Source: Psammoneis japonica
Taxonomy: Eukaryota
Length of the DNA: 64,000 bases
Assembly (NCBI GenBank): GCA_008632985.1
Contig: QPGO01000033.1
Span: 62,001-126,000, forward strand
Reading direction: 5' to 3'
Part shown: positions 1,600 through 60,300 of the stretch, piece by piece
Position numbering within the stretch: position 1 is the first letter of the stretch
Layout: each line of letters opens with the position of its first letter
Program-made: the position numbers and the translations under genes
The notes under the pieces: generated by a model
The model's input: the letters and a program-made list of their open reading frames with translations, nothing else
What the model was told of the DNA's origin: nothing
Database searches by the model: none

Positions 1600-4500
1600 A
1601 GGCTCGATCCAACACAAGATGGAAGTGCCCCCAAATCGTGCACCACAGGGCACTCAGCGGTGGAAATTACACAAGGTGGTGATCAGCACCAGCAACTTTG
1701 TGGGAAGTAAAGTGAAAGGCTGCTGCACCTGGCTTTGCTTCTTGTTGTGACTTGAAAAGCAGAGGGGGGTGCATCAGTCTCTGAATGATTGCTGCACCAC
1801 CTGACAGAGTTGCTTTTTGACCATGTTCAGAGCAAAAACAAGCCCCAAGCCAGAGGAGAGATCATGCGCTCCAGCCCCGGGCTTGGCTTTTTGTGACATG
1901 TCAGCCACAGAGTTCTGCACCCGAGCTCCTTGAAATTGTGTTGTCTGATGTCACCAGCTCTCATTGAACAAAAGACAGAAATGTGCACTTGTCCAAATTG
2001 AGCATTCCAGCCAAGCAAAGGTGTGTTTGCTGAAAAGTTGGTGCACAACATTGCTTGAAGCCAGAGCCCCCATGACTGGTCTTCTTTTACATGTGCTGAA
2101 CCTGCATGTCTGGCACATGAAAGGAGAAACTTTGCAGCAGCCAACAAGCAAACATGATGGTTGTTTGAATGGTGACCCCTCTTGCAGTGCACAAGATGCC
2201 ACGATGGCCAAACCATAAAAAAAGTGCTCACTCACTCAGCACACACTCAGCAGTGACCCGTTGTCTTCTTTGAGACCTTGTGGCTGCATTTTGATGATGC
2301 ACGATTCCGGATTCTGGGCTCCGGCTTCATCCAATCTTTCTGGCATTCTCGTGTGTTCCTTCTCTTGCCGTGCTCTCGAGCTGCTCGCTCAAGACTGGCA
2401 GCTCCCTGAGCCCCAAGCAAGATCCACTTCCTGAGGTCCAATCTCCTCCCTTGTTCTGCACTGCTGCTTGCTCTGCATCTGCTGAGCTCCCTCCCTCCAA
2501 GCACCCACGTCCTTCCACTGGCGTCTCCACTCATCCAGCTGAGGTCTCTGGTCAAGTGATGCAACCGAGTCAATGACTCCACTGCTCTCAAGCAGCCTCA
2601 CAATGGGATGTTGAGCTTTTGGAAGCTCTCAATGTCTTTGTTGCCACTCATTGCCCCATGCTGCTCACATCCCCGACTGGATGCTGCCACTCTGTGATGC
2701 TCCTGTTCTTGCTGCCACCCCCAACTTCAACTCCCTCCACGACATGGAACCTGCCCCCCCCCCCCCACCTGCTGCTCCTGCAAGCAGCCACCTCCACCTG
2801 AAGCAAGTGTCTGCCCAGTTCTTCAATGCCGCTGGTTTGCATGTCTGCAGACATTGCAATCATGGCCAACACACCTGCCTCTCTCTTGCACACCTCTGCA
2901 TCATTTGCAAAACAAGTGCTTTGCTCCTCGCACCACCCTCAACACCAACATTGTTGCCCCCACCCTCAGTGATGCTGGCAAATGGCACTCCTCCCTTCAG
3001 TGGCTTCACTCCCTTGTGCCCACTCCTCCTCCCTTCAAAGCACAAAGCACCCCCCCCCCAAAGCTCCCCTCCTCTGCTTGCAAAAAACTCTGCTTTGCTC
3101 TCCACCACATGGCTCAGTGGGTTTCACTCACCACTTCCCAACCCTTCTCTGTTTCCACTCATCTCAATCCTCCATTGCAACATGATCCTGCACACCCTTT
3201 TGGAAGCTTCTGCCACTCTTTGAGGCTCTCCTCCCAGCCTCTGGCCCTCTGCATTCCAATGTCAGCCTTGCAATGTGGCCTCCTGCCTTGCTCTCTTCTG
3301 CCATGGCTGCACCTGTCAGCTTTGTGAAGAAGATGATGCCTGCTCTCTCCTCTGCCAGCTCCTCCTCTCTTGACTTCTCTGCCTCCACCTGTTGACATTC
3401 TGCCCAACAAGGAGCCTGCACTGATGAAGATGGCTTTTGATCTGCCTGTTCCAAGCTTGCCTCTCATCAAATGCTTGCTCCCTGATGATCAATTTGGCAT
3501 CTGTGTTAAAGGTGGCCTTGACTGTCTCATCTGCTCTGCCCATGCCAACATTGAGCACTGCCTTTCCTCTGCTGCTGTCCCTGCCAAGCTCTTCCTGCTG
3601 CTCAACATTCACCTCTGCCCTGACTCTGCCTGGGATTTCTCCTTTGTTCAAGAAGAAGGCATTGCTCAAGGCTGACCCCTTGGTCCTGTCTCTGCCAGCC
3701 TTGTCCTCTTTTTCTTGTTCTCCACCCATGCAATCAAGAGCTCCTTCACCATCTCCCCAGCTGCTCTCCTGCTTCTGCTGGCCCTTGCATCAATGACACA
3801 CATTGCATCTTTCTCCCCCACTCTGCTCTTCCATGGTTCCTTGAGCACTTCTCCACTCTTGGTGCTCCTTGCAGCATCACTGTCAACTCTCAACCTTTGC
3901 AAACCAAGATTCTTGCCTCATCACCAGCATCAGCCCCATCTTCACTCTTCCTCCCTCTCAGGCTGACTCTCTTTGTGTTTTTTTCTCCCATCTCAATCCT
4001 GCAAATGACCCTTCCTGCACTCCAGAGCCCACCTCAGGCATCTGCTTCTTTGGTCAGCCCCTCAGCTCTCAAGACTTTGCCAACTCCTTCCTCTCTGCTG
4101 CTTTTTCTGCTCTCTCTGACAAAGTTGGCATGCTCCCACCTTGCCCTCACAACAAACAAACCCAAGAACAACTTTTTAAGCCCTGTTTCACTCCCTCCTC
4201 TGCTCACCTCCTTGGTGCTGATTTTTGTCATCACAACTTTGATCCCGGCAACCATCCCAACCCTTTTCTTTGGACACATGATGTTCCTTCCAGGACACTC
4301 CCCATTGGCTTCTTTGCTGTGTTGCCTCCCATGCCAACCCTCTGCCTCCTCACTCCCTTGCCATCACCTTTCTTCCTGCTTTGCTTGGTGGCTTTGGCCT
4401 TTGGGACCCGTTGGCCACTGCCATTCCTTCCTTCCCAGTTGCTCTCAAATGTGCCGCTGCCCTTGCCTCCACCTCCTCTTGTCCCTTTCTGCTTCTTCCT

Positions 4501-5990
4501 TGGCTGCTTTTGTCAAGTTTGCTGCTCTCCCTGGCCCGGCCCACCATCTCTGTCACAATCACCAGCAGCAAGTTGTTGCCAATGTTCCCTCTGATGTGCA
4601 GGTTTTCCTGCCCTCTCTCCTCCTGTCTTTGCCAACCAGCCTCCCCTCTTCACTCCTTCTCCCGCCACTTCCAGAGCTCCTGCCTTGCTTCTGATGACTG
4701 CATCATTGTGGCCCAGTGCAAACTCTGTCTCCCAAGAATTCCTCTTCCTTCCCTCACTGGCACACCCTGTTCCTGTGGTCACACCTTCCTCAACCCTTGT
4801 GGTGATTGTGCATTCTCTTGCCAGTGTGAGGCCACACAAATCAAGACTCTCTGATGGCCATGTGGCCCCCCTTGCTGAGCTCTGTTGTTCCTCCAATGAT
4901 GCTCACATTGAGCCTGCAAATCTGCTTGCCACCAGCCCGCTTCTCAGTCCAGCCAATGTTGGCATTTCTGTGCCACCTCCAGCTTCTCTTTCCAGTCCCT
5001 CCTGCCACCACTGCATTGCTGTTGATGTCACCATTCTCCAAGCTCCTTGCCCTCCTCCTGGTCTGCCTGCTCCCTTTTCTCCTTTTTTTTCACTTGGGCA
5101 CACCACTCAAGCACAAGACCAAAGTTTCTTGGACCTTCCAACTCTTCTCTGCTGATGGACCCCCTTGTTGTTGCTTCTCTGCTCAACAACAATGGCATCT
5201 TCCTTCTTCCCTTTGCCATTGATCACATTGGTGACCTTGTGGCTTCTTTTGCCATTGATTTCTCTTCAGCTCTTTGCTCTCCTCTGCCTGCTTCCAGCCC
5301 AAGCCTCTCCGGTCTTCCTCCTCTGACCTTTGCAGGCCACTCTGATGCTTTCCATTCTGCCTTTCTCTGCACCCTGACATCTCTGCTCACCCTTCTCTTT
5401 CTTCTGCTGATTTTGCCTGGAATTGCCTTTCCAGTGACTGTTTTGGCAGCATGCATCATTCTGCCTCTCCTTCCCAATGGGCCATCCAAACACTTGGCCA
5501 CAGCCTCGCTTGCTGTCTTTCCATGCATGCCCTTTGCTCTCCTGCTCCCTCTGCCAAATGTCCTGCAAGCTGCACTCTGCGCACCCTTCCTGCTCTTCTG
5601 CTGCTGCAGCTGCTTCTCTGTGCCTCCTTTTGCTGTTCCCTTTTGATCTCAACAGGCTTTTCAACTCTGTGCTTGGCTCAAAGTGGCCCCAAATTGTGTG
5701 CCACAGGGCATTTCAGAGGCAGAAAGCCAGGTCAAAGGGAGCCCCGCGTGTGGCGGCCGAGCTGCAAACCAAGATGCAGCTTGGAGACTGCTTTCTTGCT
5801 TCTCTGCTCTCTGCTCTGGAGCAGGACCCAGACAGCCAGCTGCTGCAGAGGAAACTGATGCATGCATTGCTTTGTGCCGCAGGGCCCAGCCCAGCTGTTC
5901 ACAGCCCCACAGCTGGATGGCTGGTCTGCCTGCCTGCGCCTGCCTGGGCGCCGCCTGCGCCTGCCTGGAGGATGGACGATCCATTGGCAC
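1600..5990 (+). mobile_element. Decayed repeat block containing a non-LTR retrotransposon (RT plus restriction-like endonuclease, CRE-like) at about 2600-5700
   Basis: Remnant motifs on + strand: LLPDDQFGICVKGGLD (~3480-3525), QEEGIAQG*PLGP (~3650-3690), CIND for YIDD (3786-3797), GICFFGQPL, zinc knuckle CSCG..LNPCGD..F.C (~4770-4825), PANVG...IAVDVTI and LLPFAIDH. Block is nearly devoid of TpA and CpG. Boundaries approximate. Confidence 0.7.
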
Positions 5991-27205: not shown

Positions 27206-27379
27206 GTAATTCAACGAGAGCTTCATGGAGCTCCACGACAATCGCGATGGAGGATGTACCGTAGCTGCTACAACCACTTCTTCGAACTCCGATGATGATT
27301 TCCAATTATTCTTATGCCAGCATTAACAATGTCGAACGCATGCACTAGAGTAAAATTGTAAGCTTGCACAATGAGTAAC

Positions 27380-28600
27380 ATGTCACCGAATGTGGTTTAA
27401 ACCAGACATTTAGTTTGCGTTGTTTCCCCTTTCCATTCAAGAACTTGGTCGTGAATGGCAATTCTGAGACATGACTCTGAAGACAGTGTGAAAGGGGCGT
27501 CTTGTGACACGAAAAAACAGCTCATCACAATCACACATAAAGAAAAAGAGAAGCACGAGTCATTCCACCAAAATGTTTCCCAATGCCCCCAAGCTCCAGC
27601 AAATGACAATGGGATGGGGCATTTGGTCTGCCAGTTGAGCACAAATGTTCACCACTTTGCATTTTGCCCACACAACAAAAAGAACAGAGGTGGATGTGAA
27701 CACTGCTGCAAACTGCCATGCTTGAGATGCAGCCAGCCCCTTCCAGCGGCACAACATGTGACCAGCGGATCACGCAAAACAACAACACCGTGGTTCTTGA
27801 ATTGCCCACACAAATGGTCATGTCATTGTTTGATTTCAAATTCTGTGCAATCATGAAAAAAGCAAATTTGCGGGCATGGCAATGCCCAGCAGCTGTCAAA
27901 AGATGTTGCGCACCCAACCTTTCATTGCAGTTGGACCCAGCTTGCACAAAGGACAGCTGGCAATTGGAGGAGGGAGGGGCCACAATGAAGGGGCAGCAGC
28001 AGCCAGGGATGACTTTGCTGCACTGCCTGCAACCTGGGCATGTGAGCCACCCCCAAGCCAGCATCAAAATCGCTGTCTGCTCCTCTCTGCTTCTGACACA
28101 TGCAGTCAAACACACTGTCAGATGTGCAAGAAGCTGTGGCTGTGTCAAGTGCTTGTCTGTGAAACAAGTGAGAAGAGTTGCGTGAACTCTGTCTGCAGAT
28201 CTGCAGGGTGTGAACCTCCTCGATGCACCTGCCAATGCACACAGCAGTGCAGGACGACACTGCTCAACCACAAACCTTGGTGCCAGCCCAATTTTTTATG
28301 ACCATTTTTGTCAATTACATGCAAGTCACTGTGCATGAAATGCCACCCATGCTGGGAGTGACAGCTGGCCCTGCTCCTGCACGACAAGCTGCAGAGAGCT
28401 GAGCCACGAGAGGGGCCAGGCAAAAAGAAGAGACATTGTGCTCATTTCTCTGAGCTGTGTCTCCCTCTCCTGGCAGGATGAGAGATCATGCCAGTGACAA
28501 TGCTCCTCCTCTCAGTGCATCCTGCTGGGTTCATCCCTGCTCAAGTTGGTGCTGTTTGAGCAGGTGGAGGCAGAGCAGAAGCGGGCAAATGCCCAGGTGA
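27380..28600. mobile_element. Decayed TpA/CpG-depleted repeat fragment, family not identified
   Basis: Same compositional signature as the identified transposon blocks; only overlapping Cys/His-rich, Tyr-poor ORFs. Confidence 0.5.
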
Positions 28601-28766
28601 CGGTTGGACGCACGGACGAAACGACGTCTAGAGAGTCCGTCCGTCTATCACGCGGAACGACAGCCACACGAGATGATGCTTTCTGCGCGACGAGGAAAAA
28701 AGCCGAAACAAAAAACGCACATCACACACATCAGACAACAAAGAGCAGTATAGTAGGCAATACATA

Positions 28767-38799: not shown

Positions 38800-41700
38800 C
38801 AATCACAAAGCACCTCCTTAAGATGCCCCACAGAAGCCTGAACTGTCCATCATTGTTGATTTTTGGAATGGCTTGAGTGCAAGATTGTGATGGAAAGCTG
38901 AGCGAGTGACACCGGTGTCTCATTTCATCGTCATCATCAAGTGGAGCTTTTCACACAGAGCATCTGTTTCACATTCATTGAGAGGTCTCACCAATGATGT
39001 GGCAACTTTGTGTGCTCCAAACAGCACTTGGGAACACTGCAACAATGGACGGTGGTGTGCCAGGGGCAACAGAGTCTGTTGTCTCTTCTGCCCCTCAAGC
39101 AGAGCTGCTCTCTCCCACAACAAGCTGGGGGAAGGCATGCCAAGAGATGGCTGGGGTGTGGCCTCAGCTGGAGAGTGCAAAGTTGAGCCATGGAAGCAGC
39201 CAGAGTGCAAACAATTTGGCAATCCATCTTTGCTGGCATTTGTGGCAAAAACTTCTTCCTCCTGCACAGAGCTGCCTCATCAGCAGAGTGCCTGCCGGTG
39301 GCAGCAATTTGCAGGAGCAGTCTTTTGTCTGAAGAAGGAGTGCTCCTTTTCTGACTTGTCTGCAAGGTCAGCAAAAGAGCTCCTCACTCTTTTCTCTGCA
39401 CGACTGCCTCAACTTCAACAACTGCTGGGTCTGCTCTTTCTCTGTGTGAGGGCCTTTGCTGCCACATCACAAGAAAGCTCAGCTGGGCTGCCAATGACAG
39501 GTGTGCCATCATCAACCCTCCACAGCTGCCACTTTCCTGCTCAATCATTGGCCCAGGCCAGACAACAAATTCATGCTCAACATCAAGACATGAGGCCACT
39601 TTTGCAAGGCTGTTGTGCCTTTTCACACTCAAAATGTTGGAAAATCAATTTGCGTGGTTGTGGGCTGAAGGTGCCACAGAGAATGGCTGCAACTGCTGCA
39701 CAAAAAAGTGCAAAAAGTTGTTGAGATGAGCTTCTGGCCAGCAGCTCAACAAATGCACCACCAAGCCAACACACAAAACAAGTCCATAATCATGCACAAA
39801 TGTGTGTGAATTTTGTGCACCAAGATGTCATTAAAAAATGTGAAATGTTGCAATTTTTTGCTGTGAGTTCCCACCCAGAGCTGTGGCTTGTCTGTTTTTC
39901 TTTCTGCTTTGCTTGTTGCTTGGCACTCTCCTGCAGCCCAATGGGGACTTTGTCTTGCTGGTCAGCTCCCCTGTCACATTTTCTTCTTTTTTCTTGTTGC
40001 AGTGGCAGCTCTGACTCTCTTGGCAGCACTGCTCTTTCCACCTTGGCTCTCACTGGCTGTCATTTTTTTCATCACATTGTTCAGCAGAGTTGAAGGTGCC
40101 CTGTGTGGGCAAGCTTTTCTTTGTCATCATTGTGCTGTTGTTTGGGTTGACAAGTTCCACTTTGATGATTTCATTGTGTCAGCAGTGCTGTGATTTTTCA
40201 TCTTTTTGTGTCATTGGCCAGGCATGGCAGCTCCCATTGACAGCTTTCATCATTGCATCATTTTCAACTTCTGGAGCTGACAGGTCTTGCTTCTCCTTGC
40301 CAGCAGTTTTTAAATTTTGAGCCCAAATTGCACCCGTGTGCAGCTGCTCCTTGCCCACCCAGCACCAAAGCTGTGCTTTTGTCCTTTGCATGCATTGCCA
40401 CCTCAGAAAGCAGCAGCACTTGGCTTCCATCGGCTCCCTTTGACTGACCAACACTGCACCCTCCAGCCAGCCAGCTTGAGGCAAATTTCTCTGTTGTGAT
40501 GTGTTTTTTCTCAGTTGGCTGTGCTGGCTCTGAATGATCTGGAAACCCAACACTGCCAGAGAAACCATTGCCACCATCTGCAATCTGCAACATCAGATCC
40601 ACAAGCAAAACAACTGCAATTTTTAAACATGTGACCAGCTTCTTCACACAGCTGCCACAATTGTTTGACAAGAACAATGACGATGTTGTTGGGCAAAGAG
40701 CAATCACAGATCTTGTTGGGCAGGAGCAAGAGCTTCTCTGTGGCAGAGAGTTGCACCACACAGACAGAAAAGCTGTCAGGTTTGAGCTGGGTCACTCTGG
40801 CAAAGTTGTTGGCACTGCCCACCTCTTTGCACAAGACATTGCGTGCACTTTTTTCAAGTTTTGGCTTTGCAGCAAGCAAAAATGACATTCTCAAATGATC
40901 TTGAGTGTGCAAGTTGCAAGCAAATGCCCAAGCTAGACATGTGTGGGAGAAAGAGCTTTTTTGGGCATTTTCCATCTAGAGGAGACCCCAATGATCAGCT
41001 GATCTTTAACGCATGGCTTCACACTGGCTGCCACACACAAACAATCAGCTCCTCTCTTCAAACAATCAGCTCCTCCTCTCTTGCTCTTTGCAAGTCCTGC
41101 AGTCTCTGTGTCATCATGGCACACAACATCAAGAGGTTGAAAATGGCAAAGTTGTCTCCACAAGCAGAATGTCACAGAGCTGGAGCAAGACAAAAGAGTC
41201 AGACTCTGGTGCAATTGGATGGCAAAACTCAAAAAGGCAAGCAATCACCTCAGGGGGTGTGGTGTCCTGCAAAACCTTGTCCCAACTCTGGAAGTGAAGA
41301 AGACATGTGAATCTGTCAAGTCTTCCATCAAAAAGTGCAAAGTTGCCCTTCTTGATTGTTTGGACAAGCTTCAGTGAAAGAGTTGTGCTGAGACTGTGCA
41401 CACTGCCTTTCACACTTTCCTGCAGTTTGCTGTTTGGGCACCACTCCAGTTTGTGAGCACACAGGGAAAAGTTTGAGCGGCCTCACAACAACTCTTCATT
41501 CAGGGCTTTTGTGTTGCACTTTGCAGTGCAAGCCCATTGGCTCTCCTCTTTTCACACCAGGTTGAGCTCCAACAAACTGTTGGTGCATTCCAGCCCTGGG
41601 TGGAACTCCATGTGACATGGGCCCACAGAATTCTGTGCACAAGCTCCACAGATCACATGCTGGACAATGAAGAACACATTTGTCTTTGATGTCTGAACAA

Positions 41701-42480
41701 ATGGCCAAGTTGGCGGGCAGTGCATGCATGCCTTGCAGCACTCTGAGTTTTTGAAAGTCTGTCTGCCCTGCTCAATTCTGCAGACATTCAAGAATCACAT
41801 TGTGGGAAAAAGTGACAAAAGCCAACAATTGAGCTGCAAAATGTTGCCAAAGTCATGACAAAAAATGTCAACAATGCCACAGTCCAGGGGCACAAGGCTC
41901 CACCCAGACCTGGCATGCATCTGTTTCCTGTGCCATCTGCTGTGGGATGCATTGACAATCTAAATTTTTCAGACTGGACCCTCCGTGGCACATGAGAAAT
42001 GCTTGGTCAAGGTCCATGCCCACCACCTGCTCGTTTTTGCCCTGGTCTAAATGCCAGACCACACGAGGACATCAAATTGGGTTTGGCAAGAGTAAAAAAG
42101 GTTTTTGCTGCTCTTGTTTGGCACAAAAAATGCCACAGTGAGTGCTGTTCCACATGACCATTCCCTTGGACACACATCTTGAGTGACAAACTCTTCACGA
42201 CCGCTGTGCTTGGACAGACAAATCTCAGCTGGAACAACTGCACACCACTGTTTGAACTTGGTGAGAATGCATCCTTCAATTCATTGTCGTGCTCATCATC
42301 ATTCAAGGAAGAAATCTTTTTGGCTTGAAAATGCGCCTCGCAGAGGAGTGCAAAGTCCGCAGCTGTTGGAATGGGATCATTCGACTCTGTCATTGCGATT
42401 GGCATTTGTGATTTTTTTGGCTGGCTGATGCTGGGCGGGTGAGGAGTGCCACAAGCAAAACTTCCGATCGATCAAGCAAA
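38800..42480. mobile_element. Decayed TpA/CpG-depleted repeat block, family not identified
   Basis: Only about ten TA dinucleotides seen by eye in ~3.7 kb, few CpG, strong TG/CA excess, many overlapping Tyr-free ORFs. Confidence 0.55.
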
Positions 42481-48399: not shown

Positions 48400-51300
48400 A
48401 TTCTAAGCACCAATGCCAAATTTGCTGCTTACTTTTTTGTTTGCTGCTTCCTCCATTTTTGAATCCGTTTGCATTCTGCTTTGCGACTTCACCAACTTTG
48501 GAGTTGATTGTCTCGGCAACAACATGCTATCGACTGGCATGCCAAGCACAGCTTGAGAGCTGCTACATCATTGCGCACAGCATAAAACTTTGTTGGATCT
48601 TCTATTTGCTTTTGTGCTGGTGCATTGGCCTCGTCGTTAAAACCAAATTGGAAGTCTTTCGACATCCATTTGGAAGCAACCTTGGAATTCCTGTCTCAGG
48701 TCGATGAAATGCAAGGTGGAGTGCAGAGCGTGTACACATTCAATTCTAAATAAGCAGGTTGACAAGACTGGTGGCATTGGACTTTGCACAGGCTTCTGAA
48801 TTCAACATCTCCCACCACATTTTGTCAAGTGATGTGAGAACAGTGGTGTTGACGTGATCAACACTTCCTTGTCATCTTCATGCACTGAAAATTTGCTGCA
48901 AAGTTGCAACATTTTCATGGCATGTTGTCATGTCCCACCAGCATCTTCTGGAGGTGGAGCACCAGACCCATCAAACAGACATGCCATGGATGCATCCTTT
49001 GGAACTTCTCTTTGACATTTCCCAACAACAAGTTGCACAACTCCGCCAATGTCTCCAAAGTCATTCACGCATTGAAGGAACATTTTGCCACCACTGTTTG
49101 CCTCTGAAACAAGTCCTGCAGCTTGATTGCTTTGTGGTCATTTGCGAATGCCCCACCTGTGTGGCATGCCCTGCTTGGCATGCCAGCAAACACCAAGAAG
49201 CACCTCAGCCATCTTTGAAATGCATCAAAGCACACAGCATGCAAGCTCAGATCAGGAGACACAAGAGTTTCATGCTTGGTCTTGGTTTGATGCCATCAAC
49301 TCAGCAGGTGCCATTCATTTGCCCACTTCTTTTTTTTTTTGCTGGACTTGACATTGTCAAGCTAAAACACAGACTTTCTTTGCCACCCGCTTTGCAGATG
49401 TTTCAGAGGTCCATTTTTGCCTCTTGACTCATGACTTGATGATGTGAGTGCATCACCATTGTGTGCTCATCCAAAGTTTTTGCTGTTTTGAAATGAGCAG
49501 AGCTTGGACATTGCATGCAAATGCTTGGAAATGCAGGCAACTGTCTGTTGGAGCTTGTGTTGAAAAAGAGTTCAGGTGTTGTTAGCCTGCTGTGTTTCAA
49601 GATGTCAAATTTTCAACAGCAGTGAGATTTGAGAGCTTTCTGATGCAACTGTTGGCCCCAGTCTCATCCAAGGGAAGACACATTTGCAACGATGACTCTC
49701 CTTGTTCTTCAACCAGATGCTGCAGGAGCGTCCAATTGCTCCATTCAAATTTGTGTCTTCTGGCCCGCACAGTTTCTAACACCAAGCAAAAACACACCTC
49801 ATCAATTGGCCCTGTCAAGTCACTCAGCATGTGTCTTAAAAACCTTCAGCAAGTGCCAAGCAGGCCAGTGAGCAGAGCATTCATGAAAGTGGAGCCACGT
49901 TGATGGAGGAGACCAAAGGTTCATTCAATGAACCAAGTGAAAAGAGCTGCCAAGCCCAGCTCTTTCCAAGAAAATTGATTTTTTACAGAACATGTCTTTG
50001 CAACATCAGAGCAAAAACAATCTCTTGCATGTCAGTCAATCACTTTGGTGCCCCTTCATTTGAGTTTCGTTGAGTCAGAACCAGCGGTGCTTTTGGCAGC
50101 AGGCAGCCCAAAGTGACATGAAATGACAAGGAACAATTGCTTTGGAAAAAAATGCTGGCACAAAGATGAAACTGCCCACCTCACATGCAGCAGCAGATCC
50201 ACCTTGTCCATTTTGTCACCCTGGTTTTGGCAGTTTGGAATGCACCCATCACATGTCCCAAGCAAAGCTGGTGCACTTTTTTTCACCCCCAGGAGCACCC
50301 AGGTGTTCAGATGCATGTTGCAACACAACAATTGCTTGTGCAGTGAAAAAGTTGGTGCACAGGTCTCTTGTTTTGTCTCCATGCAGGTCAGTCATCTCTG
50401 CTGTGGCAGAACACCCACCACAGATTGCAGCTGCAGAGGACTTTTGGTTTTGACCCTCTCCCAAAGAGCAGAAGGAGAGCACAATGTTTTCTGAGGCCAA
50501 AAGTCTTGCTGGCTCCAACAACAGGAAGATTGCTCAGCTCTTTTCAGCTTTGCAACCATCAAAATCACCCGTTGAAAATGATCTAAGCTGCACCCTTTTT
50601 GATGTCATCAGAGGAGTGCATCACCCTTGAGCACAAGCAGCTTCTTCCAATGAGCAGCCCCCCACATTTTTGATGGCAACAGCACCTCTTGTCATGAGGC
50701 CTGTCTCAAGCACAGACCATCTCAAGTTTGACAAATTTGGGCAGTCCAACGATGTTGCCCCGTGTTTCTTGCCACACTGAAAGGTGGCATTGACCATGAC
50801 ACATGCTTCAGAAATGCCCGCCAATGATTGTGGCAACTTTGATGCAAACAAGATTCCATCCATGCCCATCAGCCCACAACAATTTTTTTTTCTCCTGCAC
50901 TGGCTGCTCAAGTTCTTCACCTGATGTGGTGAAAATGCTGCCCCTGCCGTGGAGCTTGCGTGCAAGTGTTTGCTTGGATGAACCATTGGCACTGCTTGAC
51001 GGTCATTCATTTGCTGCATGGATCAACATTTCTGCGCAAAATTCAGCATCAATTTCCATGTGAAAGAAACATTTCTTCCAATGTCCTTCTTCTCAACACA
51101 TGTGTCACTGAGGCTCCTTGTTTCACACCTGCAAGTCCTGAACACTTCTTTTTCTGCTTGCTGTCCTGCCAAGATTGCAGCTCTAAGTGGCAGACTGTTT
51201 GCTTTTGTTCCAGTGCACACAAATTTGAAATTCAGCCAGTCTTTGTGGAAGACAAGACTCGTCCATGGAAGCAAGGTTTTTCTTCCAGAGAGAGTTTGCG

Positions 51301-51560
51301 CTGACTTTGAATCCTCTTCTTAACATGATTGTCCTTTGCTGTGGCAGTTTGGGGGCTTTGCATCCTCTTCAAAAGAAAGCAACAACTTCATTCTTGTGCA
51401 ATTTGTCCTCAACCTGTTGTCTCCGGTGCGCATTGCTGCAAAGAGTGACGTGTTGACTGGCTGATCACATGAACTTCTGCCGCACACCCTGTTCAGGGTG
51501 TGCTGGGGGCAAAGGTGCAATGGCATTAAAAATTGGGTTTAAGTTTTCAACTCAGGCAGT
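48400..51560. mobile_element. Decayed TpA/CpG-depleted repeat block, possibly a Mutator-like DNA transposon on the - strand
   Basis: Compositional signature is clear. Family assignment rests only on VNATFQCG (possible VDATF) near 50780 and is weak. Confidence 0.45.
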
Positions 51561-51575
51561 GCACTGGGGAACAAT

Positions 51576-52340
51576 CTACAAGGTTTTCCACAAATTTGCA
51601 TGAGAGGTGAGCACATTTTTGTCACCACAAACAGGCAAAATGTTGACAGTCATGAGGAGAGCGAACTTCGTCTGCTTGGTGGTGGTGTGGGTGCTGGCAT
51701 GGTGTGCCTCGGCAAAAGGGTTAAGATTGGGGGCAGGCAAACCATGAGCTGGGAGGGGAGGTGGTTCAGGAACGGTGACATTGACGGCGCCAGGTGGTTG
51801 CAACCTGCAGGGGTGAAGCAGTTCTGCCACCGCAACATGGTGATCAAGCATTCCTGCATTCTCTTGATGGTCGGAGTCAGACATCGCCCCAGACCAAAGT
51901 TCCCAGTTCCCCTGCCATCCACAAGTTTGAAGGAAGACAGCACCCTTCGCAACGCATGCATTGCAGCAGTGGGAAAACAATGCACGATTTATGTCAGTGT
52001 GCAATGAGTCTCCACATGGCACATTTGTGTCATCCCAAAATGTGGCTCGTCTGTCACCAAACTTCTTTGCCCATTTTTCCAGTCGGAAAGCAATGTCCTC
52101 GTCGTACGATGCAAAATGTGGACACCGCAACAACAACGTTTGTTTGATTTTTCTGAGCTTGTGATCGATGATGCTGGCAATTGTTCGTCTGCTCTTCACT
52201 TTGCAAGTCACAATCAAAGCTTCCATTGTCATGTTTGTTCGACACCAAACCCACTCGAAGCAGCAGAACCACTCTTCAAACCACGTGAGAGACGATGTTC
52301 GGTCCATCATTTCATCAACCGAACCATCACACACAACCAA
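51576..52340 (-). pseudogene. PIF/Harbinger-ISL2EU-type DDE transposase remnant (DDE_Tnp_4-like), C-terminally truncated
   Basis: TWFEEWF, FWDDTNVP, RALFSHCCNACVAKGAVFLQTCGW, ELWSGAMSDSDH; expected Tyr residues read Cys/His. Confidence 0.65.
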
Positions 52341-53425
52341 AAAACAAACGACACCAACAAAAATAGAGAATCGTGTCCGGTGCGAACTTTTACCTCTGAA
52401 TCACCAAGAGCCTCTAGATGGACTGTTGGTGGTGGCTGCGCCGGCGGAGCAGTCTTTTTCGACACGGGCGCACTTGGTCTCGCATTCGACACGGTCACCG
52501 TTGTTGTCAATTGCATTGCAAGGTTCGCACAGCCAAGCATCCACCAGCACAGCCAGTTCCTGCTTGGCTCTCATCAGCTCCAAACCATCTCTTGATTTCC
52601 TTCCAGACCTCTCATGAGCAAGCGACAGCAACAATCTTCCGCATCGGTCGTGATCTGTGGCAACGTCCTTTTTTGTCAAATCCGTGACATTCTTTGAACC
52701 AAGACCTGAAGTGCCGCCAAGCAGCGTCACAGCCAAGCGCAAGTCCCAACAAAACACAAAATCTGGGATCCAACTCCTTGTCAATGATGGGGTGCTTTGC
52801 TTCTTGAATTTGCGAGTCTTTCAATTCATCAGAATCATTCACAACATGCAACAGCATGCTCTTAAATCCGCTTTCCACGGTGATGTCTTTTGTGGCGTTC
52901 TCCGATGGCACAAACGACACTGTCTGGAGAGCACGCTCTCCACAAATGAGTGAAAAAACTGAATCATTTCTCAACACAATCTGGGCTTCACAACGGCGAA
53001 CTAAGTTGCAAACAACCGAGTCCGCCTGGAAGTCTCACGTCATACAAAGAACCGAGGTCGACAGCTGAGATTGAGACACTTCCTTGACGACACGCAAGCA
53101 AAAGTCTCGAGGAAGCTTCTTTGATCCCTGTGTTTCACAAGACTTTACTCCTGATTGGAGAATTTTCTGCTTTCCCAATAAATGTGTCCGACACGCCTCC
53201 ATGACATCTTGCTTCCGGAGTTCTGATGTGATCTCTGAGGTTTCAAGCCTTGCGTGGCACGCTTTGGCGCGAGCCGTCTCCCTCTCCCCAGCCTGCTTGA
53301 TTGATGCAACTTTTACATGATGACGACTGTCAGGGTCAAATGCCATTGTTACACAAATGCCGGCGTTCACAAGTGACGTGACAACCGACACAGTGTGTGC
53401 AACAGCATCGCCGCCAGAGGAGCAA

Positions 53426-53701
53426 TGACAGGATTTGAACAGGATTTGGATGCGCGCGAAGCATCGCGCGCTGTTTAGTTTACCGCGCACAGTTTTGTGT
53501 GCTTTAGTTCCGCGCGTTCACGCGTGATGTAGTTTGCTTTCGAGCCACAAGGCTCACAAGAATAACAACAGTAGCCCGATTATGCCGACTTACACGTCTT
53601 TCGGCTCCTGCAACGGTCTCTGAACGGAGACTCATCTGCTGTTTAGACAGCAGCAAGGAGTCATTGTTTGAATTCTTGCCATTTGCCTTCAATTTCTGTC
53701 A
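53426..53701. repeat. Left LTR (276 bp)
   Basis: 268 of 276 positions identical to 58647-58922 by manual alignment, no gaps. Confidence 0.95.
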
Positions 53702-53716
53702 GATTAACAGTCTTGT
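53702..53716 (+). other. Putative primer binding site complementary to the anticodon arm of tRNA-Asn(GUU)
   Basis: GATTAACAGTCTTG abuts the LTR; its reverse complement CAAGA-CTGTTAA-TC has the form of an anticodon stem plus canonical CU-GUU-AA loop. Confidence 0.6.
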
Positions 53717-56700
53717 GACATGGCGTGTTTGCAGTTCCGGGGAACTTCGTATCCGCACTTGCAGCGAGGTGCAGTGCGGAAGGAGCGAAGCTTGGCTTGG
53801 TTGGCCATGCGAAATGGCTTCTTTTGGCGCCTCGCGATGGTGCGGAACCGCTTCCAGCCATCCGTGTCGAGGAGTCCGTTCTCTCGTGCATAGATGGCAC
53901 AGGTGACGGGTCGTCCTTGGCGATGATGGCAAGAGGCTCGGACGTGATCTCCCCACTTTCCCATTCAAGCATGATGTTGTAGCTTGAGCCTTTCCAGGTT
54001 GGGTCGTGAGGCTTCAGAGGTCCTTCGTGTGACACGATGCGTCGAAATTTCCAAATGGTGGTGTCTTCGTCTTCTTGCTCAATGTGATTCATGATGTCAT
54101 TGCAGGCAAGGACTTCCTCGTATTCGTCATTGTTGACAGAGCAGACGAACTTAGTGAGCTCGGGATTGCCGTTCACTTTCCATTTGTGGTCTTCGACGGC
54201 CTTGACGATGCGAGCTCTGTGGCGTTGTCCGTCCTCTTGTGGCTGCATGAGGAAGGTGCGTCCAATGATGTCTTGCGGATCAAAAACTGGCATCTTGGGT
54301 GTCCTGATCTCCCCATCAGGAGAATCGACGGGGTTGTCGTCATGGCGAGATTTGATGATGGGTTCAGGTGGCTCCCCATCAGGAGGATCAAGACGCAGGT
54401 TTCGAACGGCAGGATCGGGGGCAGCGGAGCGAACGTTGGACCGGTGGAGGATCTTCTGAGTCTCGTCAGATAGAATCTTGAAGGTCATCTGGTGGCCGAC
54501 GTGCTCAGCAATGCCAACGAAGCGTCCACGCAACTCACGGGATTCGGACGGCCAATCGGAGTCATCGAGGTGGAAGCACACTGGTTCCCACCAGTGAAAG
54601 CGAAGCAATGGGCTGATGTCCGGGGTGGATCCAGTGAGAGTCTCGAGGGGCGTGCGCCAGTGGAGACGTGGGGACGCTGTGTGGTTGAGTGTGAAGCACA
54701 CGTGCATGAGCGCCAGCAGCCATGTGTGGGCGGGCGAACCAAAACGGTCCATGACAGTGTTCGCCATGCGCTTCACAGTCTGGCATCGACGCTCGGCAAA
54801 GTTTTGGTGTTGCTGGTGAGGCTCACTTTGCCAGCTGGAGATGAAGAGGGCGCGTAGGATCCCGAGCACTTTGTTGCTGATCTCAACTTGAGCACGGTCG
54901 CTAATGAGTTTGGATGGGGCACCACGTTCACGGATCTGATCCTCGAGTGTGTTGACAAACTCTTTGTCCGTCTTAGTGCCGTAGACGTCAGTGACGGTAG
55001 ACTCGGTGCCAACAAACAGTTGGGCGCTGGTGCAACCAGAGTCGACGGCCGGGGTGTCGGCATGAACGGTGTCAGTGGCGACAGGCTCATTGCGACAGTG
55101 CACATTAAGGGCGGGGTTGGGTGATTTGAAGGCCTTGCGAAGGTGTGCACCGGCGGGCATGCGGGCGTACTGCGTGGTGCAGTCAAAAGTGCGACGGACC
55201 GTGTCGGCAGGTAGGAAGCCAAAGCAAGGCCGAAGAGACTCGAAGGGGGGGTCCTTGGGCTGTACAGTGCGCTCCGGAGGTGGAACGTCATCGCCCTTGG
55301 GGTCAATCGCATGCAGATGACACTCGTAGAACACGTCGTTGTTCGGAATGAGGTGATCATCGAGGGCGGACGCGTGATCGGCAGACAAGGAAGCGGACAA
55401 GATGGTCTCGTTGACAACGACACGGTGACGGCAGTTGCCGCATTCGTCAAACAGGTTGGCAGTGGGATCGTCCTGTAGGTCAGAGATCGCGTCGTACCAC
55501 TGGTCGTCGTCAGTGACAGAGTGATCGAGGACGGAAGGGTCCCATGTGTCATCACCGGTGAGGATGACATGGGGCAGGGTGTCCCATTCGGCGTCAGTGT
55601 AAGGTCGCATGGCAACATGAGGCAGGCCAGCCTTGATGTCAATGGGGATGACATAGCCATCAGGAGTGGCAACACGTTGCAAGCCATTGGGCACCTTGAC
55701 AGAGCGATCGTTGACATCCTGTTTGTACCATTCGAGCTGGCCGCAGGAATGGATGGTCTTGCCCTTGCCCGTGTGTGCGCACTGATGGAGGATGGCGATG
55801 ACGGGACCACGCTGGGTCTCAATGACGGCACCAGCGGTGACAATGGGGATGTCCACCAATTGATGATCGTCAATGCCCTGAACGTCGACTTGGCGAGAGG
55901 TGCGTGCAATGACGCGAACGTCGTCGCCAGCAATGCCGCCGTTGGCCCCACGATCGACGAGAGCGCCAGTGCGTGTGGAGCGATGAGCAGAGGCAGAGCA
56001 AATGACATTGTGGTTGTCAACGCGGCAGCAAGTGCGGCCGTTAAGTTCCATGTCATCTGCAGAAGCTGGCGGGGTAGAGGAAGCGGCGGATGGCCCCGGT
56101 CGACTGGCATTGGGGGCTTGGTTAGGAGACAACAGACGTTGCAGATCACCGGGTGGCAGTGGCTTGCGCTTGGTGAGGTGCACCAGGATGGGATTATCCG
56201 AAGTGGCGTCCACATGTGGAGCGGAGTCACCAGAGTCAGCAGGAGTCGTGTTGGACAAGTTGACATCACCGTCACTCCCAAGGCGTTGGTCGTGAAGGTT
56301 GGCCATAACAGACTCATGGCAGTTGCTGGCTCGCGGGTTGCGGGGAGGCGGACGAGAATGCTCAAGGATGATCGCCTTGGAGGAATCGGGCAACGAATCC
56401 CAGAGCCATTGGTGGTCGGGAGGGAGACGTCTCCATTGGACACCGGTGAGGCTGGGACCGCGGGTGCAGGCAGCATTGGCTTGAAGGACGTCAACGTCGC
56501 TGTCAATGTCGCAGAACACATCGTCGGACGGTTCCTCGGAGTAGACGTCGTGTGCGTGTGTGGCGCGTCGGGGAGCTCGAGGTGTCGTCTTGGGTTGAAA
56601 CGTGCTGTCGTGCTGAGCTGCCGCGGAGAGGAGCAAGCCACAGCATTGATCGTATGTGAGGCTCTTGCCACTCTGCGTACGATGCTGATCAGCTTGGTTC

Positions 56701-57650
56701 TTGACAGCACGGAGTTCCTCGACAGGGTGCACGGCATTCTCGAGCATGACGCGCTTCTGTCCTTCAGAAAAGTGGTCACTGGCCGGGATGAGTGCCTCAT
56801 GCTTGCGCAACTGATCTTGCCAATGAAGGATGAACCCGTGGGTCGGACCTTTCCAAGTGCCATCACCAAGACGTGCGGTGGTGAGGCACGTGAGCAGGGT
56901 GGAGGACTCGACAGATGCGCGGGTGGAGGCAAGCGCGCACTCAGACAAGGAGCGGCAGACGGTCTGTGCGTCAGAAGACCCCACATTTTCGCGAATGAGA
57001 GCCTTGCCCTTGTCGGTGAGAAGGATGCGTTCGAAGACGGCGAACATGTACTTTTGCTGTTCAGCAAAGAGCAGTTTGTCTTCGGGGCTGGTCGGTTTGT
57101 ACGACGAGTCTAGAATGCACTCGACGTCTTGGGCACGGGCTTGTGCCACAAGTGAGGTGTGCCAAGTGTGCCACTGCTTGTCGGATTTGAGAGCCGTGAA
57201 AGCGGTGGGATCACGCTTGATGCCTCGCTTGAAGTCCCGCACCGGGTCGCGTGCCTTGGTCGGGTTGGTGACATGTGGAGGTGCAAGGGGTGAGCTGCCG
57301 ATGGACACAGAAGACATGCAGTCGGGGCTGAGGCGGCAGGCAAGGAACTCGTCATGCGTGAACAAGGAGGAGTCGTTGGCAACGTCAAGACCTTTGTGTG
57401 CTTTGACAATGTACAGACTGACTGGTGCTGCTAACATGTTCTTATAACCACGGGGCAAAGGGATTGCATTGGTGCCGTTGTCGTGCTCAAGCGAGTCGAT
57501 TTGGGACGGTATGAACGTGAACAGTTCCTGATGCGAGTCCGTGCCGTCTTGGGCCAAAGCCAAACGAAGAGGACTCCCAGCACCTTGGGCAAGCACGGTT
57601 CCAACAACGTGCTCGAAACCATCGGTTTGTTGCTGACGAGTGAGAACCAT
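53704..57650 (-). pseudogene. Copia gag-protease-integrase polyprotein, frameshift near 53908, truncated at the start of RT
   Basis: FKRGIKRDP, protease ALVDRGANGG, integrase VATDTVHADTP / LISDRAQVE / QNFAERR, GSTPDISPLLRF, then TCAIYARENGLLD..GWKRF...GYEVPRN. Confidence 0.9.
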
Positions 57651-57722
57651 GGTAGACAAAAGTGGTGTCAGGACAATCAATTCTGGTTGGGAAGCGAAGG
57701 CAGACTCGAAACTTGGGTGAGA

Positions 57723-57754
57723 ATAGACTTGACTTGAAACAGACTTGACTTGAA
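57723..57754. repeat. 16-bp tandem duplication in the gag leader
   Basis: ATAGACTTGACTTGAA followed by ACAGACTTGACTTGAA. Confidence 0.85.
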
Positions 57755-58639
57755 ATCTTGAACTATCTTAAAATCAGAAGTCGCCGGGCTTTGTTGTCCC
57801 GTTCGTTGTCAAGTGCTAAACTTCCCATCCGGTCCGTAGAGTTGTGCCGGCACGTCCGAACCCGCAGCTGGTGGCGCTTTGGGTTGCTTGCAAGCGGAGT
57901 AGCGGGTTGTAAACCCCTGCAGGTAAGCTGACTAGAGGTGGACAAGACCCCCGAACCGTTCTTGTTTTGTGTCGGTTGGATTTCCCGATCAGGCTGGCCA
58001 GTTGACGCAGGCGTTGGGCGCTGTGGACGAACGAACAAACGCGGGAAAACACCCTTGCCCCAACGCAGGCTGTAATCACGGCCACTTGCTCTCACAGTCA
58101 TCCTCGTGGACCCAGTGGAACTGCAGAGCACCAGTGGTCCGGGGCAGATCAGGTGCAATGGACTCGGTGTGCTTGTAGAGTGGCAGCAAAACCGCAGTCC
58201 GAAGAGTGGATAAAGGTTCTTGGCCGTGGAGATGTGCACATGTGCACACATGTCTTCAGCGACTAAGATCCTTGAACATGTGGGGTTCTTGACCGTTAAC
58301 CGAGGAACAGGTGTGTCAAGGGATGTTGATCAAGGATGGACTTGGATGTGACCGTTGAACACAAGTCTTCAGCGATCAAAGGCAGTGTGATCAATCCAGA
58401 CATCCAGCGGCAAGGAGACTTGATGGTGACGTTAACTTCCTGCCGATGCCCTGGCATTGAATGCGCGTAGACTTGCCGATGCATGTAGAACACACACGGA
58501 GGTCCACGTAGAATTGAAGTGGCGTCGTTGGCAAATCAACGACGACGATGGCGGTTGCTCAATGGGTTGACAATGAGCAAGACTGTTGGCTTCATTCCAT
58601 CCGAAGTCGAATCTGTTTCTGTGGCTCCTCAAGCAAACT

Positions 58640-58646
58640 GGGGGAG
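58640..58646 (+). other. Putative polypurine tract
   Basis: GGGGGAG immediately before the right LTR. Confidence 0.55.
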
Positions 58647-58922
58647 TGACAGGATTTGAACAGGATTTGGATGCGCGCGAAGTATCGCGCGCTGTTTAGT
58701 TTACCGCGCACAGTTTTGTGTGCTTTAGTTCCGCGCGTTCACGCGTGATGCAGTTTGCTTTCGAGCCACAAGGCTCACAAGAATGACAACAGTGGCCCGA
58801 TTGTGCCGACTCACACGTCTTTCGGCTCCTGCAACGGTCTCTGAACGGAGACTCATCTGCTGTTTAGACAGCAGCAAGGAGTTGTTGTTTGAATTCTTGC
58901 CATTTGCCTTCAATTTCTGTCA
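58647..58922. repeat. Right LTR (276 bp)
   Basis: Direct repeat of 53426-53701, followed by TSD AGCAA. Confidence 0.95.
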
Positions 58923-59376
58923 AGCAAGGCCCCTGAGACCGATCCAACTCGAGTCGACAGCGATGGTTGGTGGACCATCACATTGACAAACCTCCAACAG
59001 ATGCTTTGCAGCATTTAGAATGTTTACAATGGACAAGGAGGCGATGCTATGGAGGACCGCACCGCCGCCTTGAAAACCCATCGTGTTGATTGATGCACAG
59101 AAAAAAGTGCTGTTTTGAGAGCGTGCAACAAACATCAACACGAAACTCGGTACAAATCGTCGTGCAAAGCTACATACGCAAAACCACGTGGAAATCCATT
59201 TTTGTACCACGCCACCAAAACTGGAAAATCGCATTACCCATGCGCGCGCAGACGGACGGACACAGGCGCCGCACGTGCGTCGTCCCGCCCGCTCCGGGAG
59301 AGTGCTACCGGTCATTGAGCAGTCCGAGCATCGAACGAAAGATATGTCGAACATAGCAGCATTTACATCATGAACT

Positions 59377-60300
59377 ATGAACTCTACCAACAACGATAGC
59401 AGCTCCTCAAGCCCTGATGCCCCCAAAACAGAAGATACTCCTCTAACAAGCGAAGGAGAAGATTCACGAGATGTCGGCGTTGTTCAAGAACTGGGCGGGC
59501 ACTCGTACTGCCTGAATCCGGCTCGCCTGAACAACAAGCACGACGATAAGGTAACGCTGACATCCGCAAGTTTGAAAGTAGCAAAGCTGGCTTCTTTCGT
59601 CGTCTTGTCTCCATTATTCGTACTAGGCACAGCATGCATGTATGTGGCTCCGAGAAGTATACATAATTATCTTATTTCTCGAATGTTGCGCAAGATTTGT
59701 GGTATATTGGATTCAACACTACGAAAAGAACGAACGATTTTATTGAGGAATATTTCTGGGAGAGTCTTGGATTTGGGAAGCGGAAGTGGACAGTATCTAC
59801 AATATTTATCGAAAGCTAGCTATATTGTGGCATTGGAACCCTTAAAAAACTTGCATCCTTCAATACAACGGGAAGCAAACAAGTGGCTAGATACGCAGCA
59901 TACAAAGTTTGAACTGTTTGATTTGACATTAGAAGAGTATCTTGAGGAATATCCTACCGACCGGTCATCGTTTGACTGGATTCTACTCGGCAATGTCATG
60001 TGTGAGGTGAATGATCCCATACAAACTCTTCAAAGTGTCGATCGGGCCTTGAAAGATCCAGGCGGAATCGTGTATTTCTCCGAGCACGTTGCTTGTTCGT
60101 CACGCTTCCAACGTCGACTGCAACACGTGTTCAATCCGTTTTGGAGAACTCTGAGTGGAGGTTGCAACATTAATCGGGATACGTTACAGAATATTGAGGC
60201 AATGCACAACTGGCGTGTGATCTCGTGGGAATACCCAATTCGAGTCGGCCTGGGGCCGTTTGTGCTGGGACTTGCACAGAAAGATGGCCCTTCCAAGTGA
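59377..60300 (+). CDS. Class I SAM-dependent methyltransferase (METTL7-like)
   Basis: GRVLDLGSGSG, VALEP, SFDWILLGNVMCEV, PGG..YFSEHV, GGCNINRDT. Confidence 0.85.
   Translation: MNSTNNDSSSSSPDAPKTEDTPLTSEGEDSRDVGVVQELGGHSYCLNPARLNNKHDDKVTLTSASLKVAKLASFVVLSPLFVLGTACMYVAPRSIHNYLISRMLRKICGILDSTLRKERTILLRNISGRVLDLGSGSGQYLQYLSKASYIVALEPLKNLHPSIQREANKWLDTQHTKFELFDLTLEEYLEEYPTDRSSFDWILLGNVMCEVNDPIQTLQSVDRALKDPGGIVYFSEHVACSSRFQRRLQHVFNPFWRTLSGGCNINRDTLQNIEAMHNWRVISWEYPIRVGLGPFVLGLAQKDGPSK

Follow-up and report, generated by a model that had tools for sequence, protein, structure and literature searches.

Point hypermutation directed at transposons is, to our knowledge, known essentially from fungi, as the C-to-T process of repeat-induced point mutation (RIP), and from animal antiviral deaminases. 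In Neurospora and other ascomycetes, RIP is associated with the DNMT-like protein RID and changes C to T mainly at CpA, creating TpA, AT-rich DNA and stop codons. Here we describe a pattern of the opposite direction in 64,000 nucleotides of the Psammoneis japonica contig QPGO01000033.1 (positions 62,001 to 126,000 of the forward strand), hereafter termed the window. The window carries a young long terminal repeat (LTR) retroelement of the Ty1/Copia type and four TA-depleted blocks of DNA, one of which contains a PIF/Harbinger-like transposase relic. We consider it probable that in this genome a mutational process acts on integrated transposon or silent DNA, converting TpA to TpG or CpA, while the neighbouring genes are spared.

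The process works like RIP without being a member of RIP. As in fungal RIP, the changes are transitions that are confined to transposons or repeats, occur in place and on both strands in a dinucleotide context, and approach saturation with genes left untouched. Unlike in fungal RIP, TpA is destroyed (A:T to G:C), the GC content goes slightly up, and stop codons are impossible; where C-to-T change at CpA would create TpA, tyrosine codons in the window have become cysteine or histidine codons and the relics are free of TA. The RIP-like TpCpG hypermutation of Pucciniomycotina (Horns et al. 2012, PMC3318451) is likewise transposon-directed with a lineage-specific context, but it is a fungal process and proceeds from C to T.

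Like the decay of 5-methylcytosine (5mC) at CpG, the change in the window turns a self-complementary pyrimidine-purine step into TG or CA; unlike that decay, its target is TA and not CG, the observed/expected ratio in the Copia element being 0.95 for CG and 0.26 for TA. Among the adenosine-to-inosine deaminases, a preference for a 5' U is found in TadA and ADAT2-ADAT3 acting on tRNA A34, in the mRNA editing of the fungal sexual stage, and in ADAR hyper-editing of retroelement RNA. These systems share with the window an A-to-G change with T or U immediately 5' of the edited adenine. Their substrates, however, are RNA, whereas here chromosomal DNA must be the substrate, because the changes hit both strands, arise where the element sits, and extend to a DNA-transposon relic. 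A study of aberrant repair by TDG reportedly deals with a change of TpG to CpG, which is the wrong direction for the process in the window. A search of the open-licence PMC and bioRxiv literature, supplements excluded, yielded no account of repeats hypermutated from TA to TG/CA (the papers included PMC2806351, PMC8147415 and PMC9998398).

The LTR pair and the direction of change

The two LTRs of the Copia element align over 276 bp without gaps, at 97.1% identity, and differ at eight sites (left/right): 53462 C/T, 53530 T/C, 53564 A/G, 53573 A/G, 53582 A/G, 53591 T/C, and 53662-3 CA/TG. All eight differences are transitions that interconvert TA with CA or TG, the CA/TG doublet requiring a TA or CG ancestor, and the CpGs, 20 in each LTR, are unchanged at 20 of 20. 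This base-by-base comparison returned exactly the LTR coordinates and the eight sites claimed in the preliminary description, as well as the absence of other substitution types and of indels and the roughly 20 unchanged CpGs that it had reported. Transitions of the TA to CA/TG class are available at 61 of the 276 LTR sites, and the chance of eight out of eight differences falling in this class is 5.7e-6, or 2.6e-5 if they are counted as seven events. Over both LTRs, eight changes fell on ~44 TA nucleotides and none on ~500 other positions. The terminal repeat pairs of 14 related metagenome elements served as a control, although some of them are possibly contig-end overlaps and five pairs are identical; here only 19 of 210 substitutions were of the TA class, the remainder being 35 CpG-class changes, 80 other transitions and 76 transversions, and there were 73 indel columns.

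The window was also compared with contigs of the only four public runs, all from one sample, that contain the element (run codes include X1 and X2). In this material one contig joins position 53420 to 58923, skipping 5502 bases, with five letters fitting either side, and a second contig also bridges the 53420/58923 flanks, with one C>A difference. The sample thus contains an empty-site allele, so that the Copia insertion is heterozygous or polymorphic there, and hence young.

The LTR pair alone is equally compatible with TA>CA/TG and with CA/TG>TA. The change was therefore polarised with proteins, tyrosine being encoded only by TAY. The window frame was aligned with 40 full-length relatives, split at its frameshift into two rows, and columns with an identical residue in at least 80% of the relatives were scored. 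Of 19 conserved tyrosines the element keeps five, whereas eight have become Cys (TGY), three His (CAY) and three Phe; the other conserved residues are kept at 363 of 386 columns (Fisher p 1.8e-12 versus Tyr), with Cys kept at 3/3, His at 10/11 and Arg at 29/31. Relatives mostly show Tyr at the columns of 12 of the 29 Cys and 10 of the 62 His residues of the element frame. Tyrosine makes up 1.17% of the element frame, compared with 2.86-4.79% across 120 relatives among the matches listed. The same test applied to ten related metagenome elements found 138 of 145 conserved tyrosines kept.

A second element, unrelated to the first, has lost its tyrosines as well. The minus-strand frame 51579-52400 matches the hypothetical proteins P0121 (E 5e-38) and P0122 (E 4e-23), the latter of which matches PF13359 (DDE_Tnp_4) at E 9.6e-4 and 19.2 bits, below the cut-off of 24.8; a Pfam search with the window relic itself gave no match. 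At the six aligned columns with Tyr in both proteins, the window reads F, F, F, C, C and H, so that 0/6 tyrosines are kept. Should the relic come from a cut-and-paste transposon, as the weak PF13359 match would indicate, the process would be independent of an RNA or cDNA stage, and the loss of tyrosines in this relic would rule out a purely reverse-transcription-linked origin.

The replacement of conserved Tyr by Cys and His in two unrelated elements shows that the direction of change is TA>TG and TA>CA, on both strands. The direction proposed in the preliminary description is borne out: the reverse was not found, the Tyr-to-Cys/His replacements of the two transposons are absent in the ten relatives, and the oldest relics are TA-free. 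Its assertion that both DNA strands are affected likewise agrees with the changes within one LTR and with the occurrence of Tyr-to-Cys together with Tyr-to-His replacements.

The same approach gives a different result where CpG has been lost. In the CpG-depleted relatives L065, L015, L040 and L073, arginines have been replaced by His, Cys, Gln or Trp and tyrosines are kept, which validates the method and shows that the TA and CpG decays are separable. Many related metagenome Copia loci, including these four as well as L041 and L061, have CG observed/expected ratios of 0.16-0.31; the four that were aligned have normal TA and form a natural contrast set.

Replacement of Tyr by Phe (3/19 columns in the Copia element and 3/6 in the Harbinger-like relic; examples are 57042-57044, 55242-55244 and 54573-54575) is an A>T change that removes TA and retains the aromatic residue. 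It may represent ordinary conservative divergence, or it may reflect transposon lineages adapting to the mutator.

TA-depleted blocks and spared host DNA

Dinucleotide observed/expected ratios in windows of 1 kb and 200 bp located four TA-depleted blocks, ~13 kb in total, with edges sharp to ~200 bp (~1600-5990, 27400-28600, 38800-42400 and 48800-53420). In the three large blocks the ratios are 0.02-0.06 for TA, 0.10-0.35 for CG and 1.55-1.96 for CA/TG, compared with 0.54-0.66, 0.96-1.04 and ~1.1-1.2, respectively, in host stretches. Around the shorter block, the wider interval 27300-28900 has ratios of 0.20 for TA and 0.46 for CG.

The density of pyrimidine-purine steps was used as an invariant, because transitions leave the order of purines and pyrimidines unchanged. 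Host DNA has a density of 0.238; the element and the blocks lie at 0.234-0.254, with the strand-skewed block 1600-5990 as an exception at 0.208. Among these steps, the share of TA goes from 16.2% in the host to 0.6-1.3% in the four fully depleted blocks and that of CG from 23.2% to 2.7-5.7%, while CA+TG goes from 61% to 93-96%; in 51600-53420 the shares are 2.9% for TA and 78% for CA+TG. Since the step density is unchanged while CA+TG rises, TA and CG have been converted into CA/TG and were neither deleted nor avoided. On the plus strand, 1600-5990 is 65% pyrimidine (C 35%, T 30%); as transitions are unable to yield such a skew, the ancestor of this block was already strongly strand-asymmetric.

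Many overlapping open reading frames (ORFs) of 110-356 codons, in several frames, occupy the blocks 1600-5990, 38800-42400 and 48800-53420, because the loss of TA removes TAA and TAG and never makes stops. A Pfam search with 47 ORFs from the TA-free blocks gave nothing meaningful, with one irrelevant match at E 0.041, and a frame from 1600-5990 matched none of 7999 candidates in a homologue search. A full-library search with a frame from 38800-42400 returned one marginal match (E 4.9e-4, in 10 short stretches) that was taken as noise. A self-comparison of the window in purine/pyrimidine code, in which LTRs hidden by transitions would appear, revealed no new repeats in the blocks. The preliminary description had held that the transposon-derived blocks are almost free of TA and the host genes are not. 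The depletion proved stronger than it had stated, whereas three sequences alone could be shown to derive from transposons, namely the LTR element, the Harbinger-like relic (51819-52379) and the repeat at ~50700-51800, for which the summed word depth in the public-run contigs is 288-1136 versus ~63.

Host DNA is spared up to the block edges. In ten host frames the TA observed/expected ratio is 0.56 at codon positions 2-3 and 0.62 at positions 3-1, compared with 0.24 and 0.18 in the element frame. Host intergenic DNA carries 10-16 TA per 200 bp right up to the edges of the blocks, which adjoin host frames of an ordinary eukaryotic kind (ribosomal L5, a mitochondrial carrier, Tsr1, kinases and transporters). 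Three old pairs of host duplicates show ordinary spectra (TA-class 14/307, 6/104 and 1/15), and old host duplicates at 69-82% identity are unaffected by the loss of TA. An equal loss of TA in non-transposon DNA was thus looked for at host codon positions, in intergenic DNA and in host duplicates, and all three are spared. Two of the duplications are tandem gene pairs at 69-72% identity, namely 6585-8186 with 11888-13496 (no Pfam family, internal repeats) and 14120-14465 with 16193-16538 (O-fucosyltransferase-like paralogues). As to the duplication status of the affected DNA, the Copia elements occur in very many copies and repeats make up part of 48800-53420; most of the block DNA, however, is now single-copy at a likeness of at least 80%.

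The TA deficit is no trait of the Copia family, as 75 of 76 related metagenome Copia loci have TA observed/expected ratios of 0.45-0.89, with a median of 0.70. The exception, locus L059, is a metagenome contig of 1025 bp whose best segment is 63% identical, with a ratio of 0.04 for TA and 0.52 for CG. At two Tyr motifs L059 carries Cys, and one of these motifs reads His in the window; we count this contig as an independent occurrence of the pattern. The only two TAs of L059 belong to the adjacent Tyr codons of the motif EPVYY, and its first 300 bases are TA-free and without homology.

Loss of CpG forms a separate, slower layer. In the element and in 51600-53420 TA has been lost and CG kept; the loss of TA therefore comes first and is at least ten times faster. 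By our own arithmetic, retention in 51600-53420 corresponds to roughly 2 hits per TA versus 0.14 per CG. Decay of the 5mC type was not detected in the LTR pair or the element; it is seen in the older blocks alone, as a layer added after the loss of TA.

The blocks retain 42 TAs, of which 35 are preceded by T or followed by A (TTA/TAA), the host marginal frequencies being 20% and 22%, and the four TAs common to both LTRs all lie within TTTAG. This suggests that TA with a 5' T or a 3' A is relatively refractory, which we take as a lead and not as a rule, since among the seven mutated LTR sites three to four are likewise of the TTA/TAA type. In the young element, the surviving TAs are enriched in GTAG (18/71 versus 132/1582 in the host), mostly in the non-coding leader 57800-58520, and this enrichment differs from that of TTA/TAA among the survivors of the old blocks.

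Differences between the window and the public-run contigs point to recent or continuing change. The 40 differences listed, out of 602, are a sample and not a spectrum. In 48761-53227, among the 30 differences listed against single-depth contigs, which stand for the other allele or for other copies alike, there are six single TA-class differences, three CA/TG doublets, five CpG-class transitions and 13 others; in four of these six, the contig has TA and the window CA. The divergence between contigs and window is 2.5-3.2% in 51843-53301, 0.6% in 48500-51348 and 0.3% at 59198-59500. It would appear that 48500-51348 is already exhausted of TA, and that the zone 51600-53420 is still mutating. Within the element, four of the ten sites listed have TA in other copies and TG in the window, and one is a doublet. 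Overall the window and the contigs differ mostly by transitions (500 versus 96 transversions in run X1).

Proposed process and competing explanations

The change takes place at the DNA level and in place, and it has reached a DNA-transposon relic as well as a retroelement. From the concentration of the changes on the few TA nucleotides of the young insertion we infer an enzymatic process that is targeted to silenced or repeated chromatin. In the process that we propose, an A:T to G:C transition would occur at TpA on either strand of integrated transposon DNA. Its onset would come soon after insertion, as in the young Copia derivative ~1/3 of the TAs in the LTRs and most Tyr codons are already gone and the CpGs are intact. 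The process would near completion in old relics, in which 1-2 TA per kb remain, and CpG decay would later strip CG from the same blocks. Stop codons would never be created, so that long frames would persist and the proteins would be ruined through Tyr-to-Cys/His replacement.

The favoured chemistry would be deamination of an adenine preceded by T, with hypoxanthine pairing with C, carried out by a TadA/ADAT-like or other deaminase-fold enzyme. As the main alternative, thymine might be oxidised at TpA, with 5-hydroxymethyluracil (5hmU) or 5-formyluracil (5fU) mispairing with G. The two routes would have the same outcome, and the sequence is equally consistent with A or T as the attacked base. 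Of the three candidate mechanisms put forward in the preliminary description, namely a DNA adenine deaminase, an adenine modification and error-prone repair synthesis, adenine deamination would be the preferred one. Repair by Pol eta at WA motifs, as in somatic hypermutation, also yields A:T to G:C at TA, but it appears disfavoured, since the AA context is spared here: the AA observed/expected ratio is 1.24-1.54 in the blocks versus 1.18-1.19 in the host.

More tentatively, the process may be a dedicated genome defence in which a diatom-type alga chemically rewrites the TpA of its chromosomal transposons, and which would be the first natural process to mirror RIP with an A:T-to-G:C change. A candidate enzyme would be a DNA adenine deaminase derived from TadA/ADAT, or a 5-methylpyrimidine oxidase that hits T in TpA as well as 5mC in CpG. 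Tyr codons and TA-containing signals would be destroyed without stops, and transposon lineages would answer by Tyr-to-Phe replacement. If true, the removal of TpA from integrated mobile elements would add a new chemistry to genome defence, in organisms that form a major group of primary producers in the sea. Old repeats that escape homology searches yet keep long false ORFs, a trap for gene prediction, would find their explanation in it, and such repeats could be recognised by a compositional signature: TA and CG missing, CA/TG doubled, and the density of pyrimidine-purine steps unaltered. Were the enzyme a natural DNA adenine deaminase, or a thymine oxidase specific for TpA, it would be of direct interest for base editing.

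The same pattern might arise from a genome-wide neutral bias against TpA without any targeting, in which case the relics would simply be the only unconstrained DNA drifting to a TA-free equilibrium. The host ratio for TA is itself lowish (0.54-0.66), and the genome is compact and offers little neutral host DNA to compare. We nevertheless consider such a bias unlikely, as TA at host codon positions 2-3 and 3-1 (0.56/0.62) stands at ten to thirty times the relic values and is retained in the intergenic DNA beside the blocks, the young polymorphic insertion already shows eight TA-class and no other LTR differences, and the divergence of the still-mutating zone exceeds the 0.3-0.6% found elsewhere. 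Similarly unlikely is a change that precedes integration, through editing of the RNA at UA or through reverse-transcription errors, with gene conversion or assembly mixing among copies accounting for the LTR differences. It conflicts with the changes on both strands of one LTR, with the same loss of Tyr in a DNA-transposon-like relic without an RNA stage, with the clearance of ~98% of TA from blocks that lack retroelement homology and have both CA and TG in excess, and with the TA-class differences from public-run contigs at a fixed locus. The extreme abundance of the family, the predominance of transitions among its copies and an 8:3 ratio of Tyr-to-Cys to Tyr-to-His, an excess of sense-strand A>G that falls short of significance, would agree with it. 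Editing of the ADAR or APOBEC type would leave changes on one strand, identical LTRs and an effect on retroelements only, and the window departs from this on all three counts.

Suppression of UpA and CpG is known in RNA viruses, and active transposon lineages might similarly have been selected to avoid UpA (and CpG), evading a host nuclease or sensor, with dead copies inheriting the composition. The Tyr-to-Phe replacements, which remove TA with the chemistry conserved, would suit such selection. It is nonetheless very unlikely, given that Cys or His at 11/19 conserved tyrosines, a frameshift and the loss of the reverse transcriptase amount to damage and not adaptation, that non-coding relics have TA ratios down to 0.02, and that the two LTRs of a single insertion differ. 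Even less credible is cytosine deamination of the RIP kind at CpA/TpG (and CpG), creating TpA, with the left LTR as the mutated one. The LTR pair alone fits it equally (five new TA in the left LTR and one in the right, with a doublet possible from a CpG ancestor), and the diatom DNMT4, of unknown function, is related to fungal RID (PMC9998398). This enzyme could at most concern the CpG layer. Conserved Tyr codons have been lost rather than gained, and the oldest relics, TA-free with CA/TG nearly doubled, are the opposite of a RIP product; the TA/AT ratio used as a RIP index is 0.02-0.09 in three blocks and 0.29-0.30 in 27001-29000. We give as little credence to a sequencing or assembly artefact, namely miscalls at modified bases in heavily modified repeats. 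The sequencing platform of the assembly and of the runs is not on record, and the best DNA run may be the source of the assembly itself, but 48500-51348 recurs, with 18 differences over 2852 bp, in a separately built k-mer contig from run X1 at a word depth of ~63, contig L059 from an unrelated metagenome assembly shows the same feature, and the changes are coherent at the codon level.

Several observations weigh against the proposed conversion of TpA. The whole case comes from one 64-kb window and one 1-kb metagenome contig, and transposon homology detectable by tblastn, Pfam, homologue or self-comparison searches is missing from three and a half of the TA-free blocks. The eight LTR sites are neither polarised themselves nor backed by reads, the LTRs being covered by mixed copies, and gene conversion or assembly mixing among thousands of copies could have imported part of the differences. 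Much of the internal loss of Tyr may predate this insertion, because the ancestral LTR had a host-like 10-11 TA. The three Tyr-to-Phe changes in each element, being A>T, lie outside what the proposed process explains. Differences between the window and its family are symmetric in run X2 (A>G 45 and T>C 49 versus G>A 49 and C>T 36), and the window copy is therefore no more mutated than the contigs compared; this symmetry is compatible with independent loss in each copy, without proving it. Finally, no enzyme, modified base or targeting cue has been observed.

The Copia insertion and mapped features

The features of the window are collected in Table 1. The long ORF of the element spans 53661-57767 on the minus strand (1368 codons). 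A Pfam search with this mutated frame gave zero matches even at E <= 10. With residues 600-1368 as the homologue query, 958 proteins matched at E <= 0.001 (8000 scored), the top match at 64% identity. Copia relatives typically have 1850-1900 amino acids, and nearly all of 120 among the matches listed contain PF07727, the Copia-type reverse transcriptase (RVT_2). In a tblastn comparison of five relatives with the window, the element covers their residues 1-1230 at 57650-53907, and pol homology resumes after the frameshift to residue ~1296 at 53710, 8 bp short of the LTR; the part encoding reverse transcriptase and RNase H is absent from the window copy.

The LTRs, the 5-bp target-site duplication and the order gag-protease-integrase in the tblastn matches place the element with Ty1/Copia. 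It resembles the diatom Ty1/Copia elements (CoDi; Maumus et al. 2009, PMC2806351) in its LTRs of the form TG..CA, its 5-bp target-site duplication, its gene order and its relatives with PF07727, and differs from them in lacking reverse transcriptase and RNase H and in being frameshifted. With these two defects, the window element is a Ty1/Copia deletion derivative that is non-autonomous. A tblastn search of the window with the five Copia relatives and two Harbinger-like proteins found no additional relics.

Table 1. Positions of the retroelement, the transposase relic and the TA-depleted blocks in the window.
Feature	Position	Strand	Characteristics
LTR retroelement, 5.5 kb	53426..58922	- (coding frame)	LTR pair and target-site duplication
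5' LTR by coding orientation (right LTR on + strand)	58647..58922	-	276 bp, TG..CA, 5 TA
3' LTR by coding orientation (left LTR on + strand)	53426..53701	-	276 bp, TG..CA, 9 TA
Target-site duplication AGCAA, 5 bp	53421-53425 and 58923-58927	n/a	Flanks both LTRs
gag-protease-integrase frame, Ty1/Copia-type	53911..57650	-	Residues 1-1230 of ~1850-amino-acid relatives
pol continuation, other frame (relatives' residues ~1230-1296)	53710..53910	-	After frameshift at ~53907-53910
PIF/Harbinger-like DDE transposase relic	51819..52379	-	tblastn; homologue search of frame 51579-52400
TA+CpG-depleted block	1600..5990		Observed/expected TA 0.02, CG 0.14; sharp edges
Shorter TA+CpG-depleted block	27400..28600		Core 27450-28580: 1.1% TA, 5.7% CG of pyrimidine-purine steps
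TA+CpG-depleted block	38800..42400		Observed/expected TA 0.04, CG 0.10; sharp edges
TA+CpG-depleted block	48800..51400		1.3% TA, 3.4% CG of pyrimidine-purine steps
Zone with TA lost (~0.07) and CpG kept (~0.87)	51600..53420		Copia element inserted at its right edge

In the public-run contigs the element family is extremely abundant, with a summed word depth of 50,000-138,000 over the element versus ~63-148 in the flanks. The high-depth zone extends over 53271-59142, and three tiny runs (0.3-0.5 million letters of contigs) contain the element alone and none of its flanks. Other copies have an extra G at 53907 and a different sequence from 53710 onward.

The only polypurine-like run (GGGGGAG, 58634-58646) adjoins the right LTR on the plus strand, which is puzzling for an element with a minus-strand coding frame. 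With the deletion reaching to within 8 bp of the 3' LTR (coding orientation), that LTR has no purine tract in front of it (53702-53710); the deletion might have arisen after integration. The leader of the element contains a near-perfect palindrome (GTGCACATGTGCACACATG-like) at 58213-58273, which appeared as a self-inverted match in the purine/pyrimidine-coded comparison.

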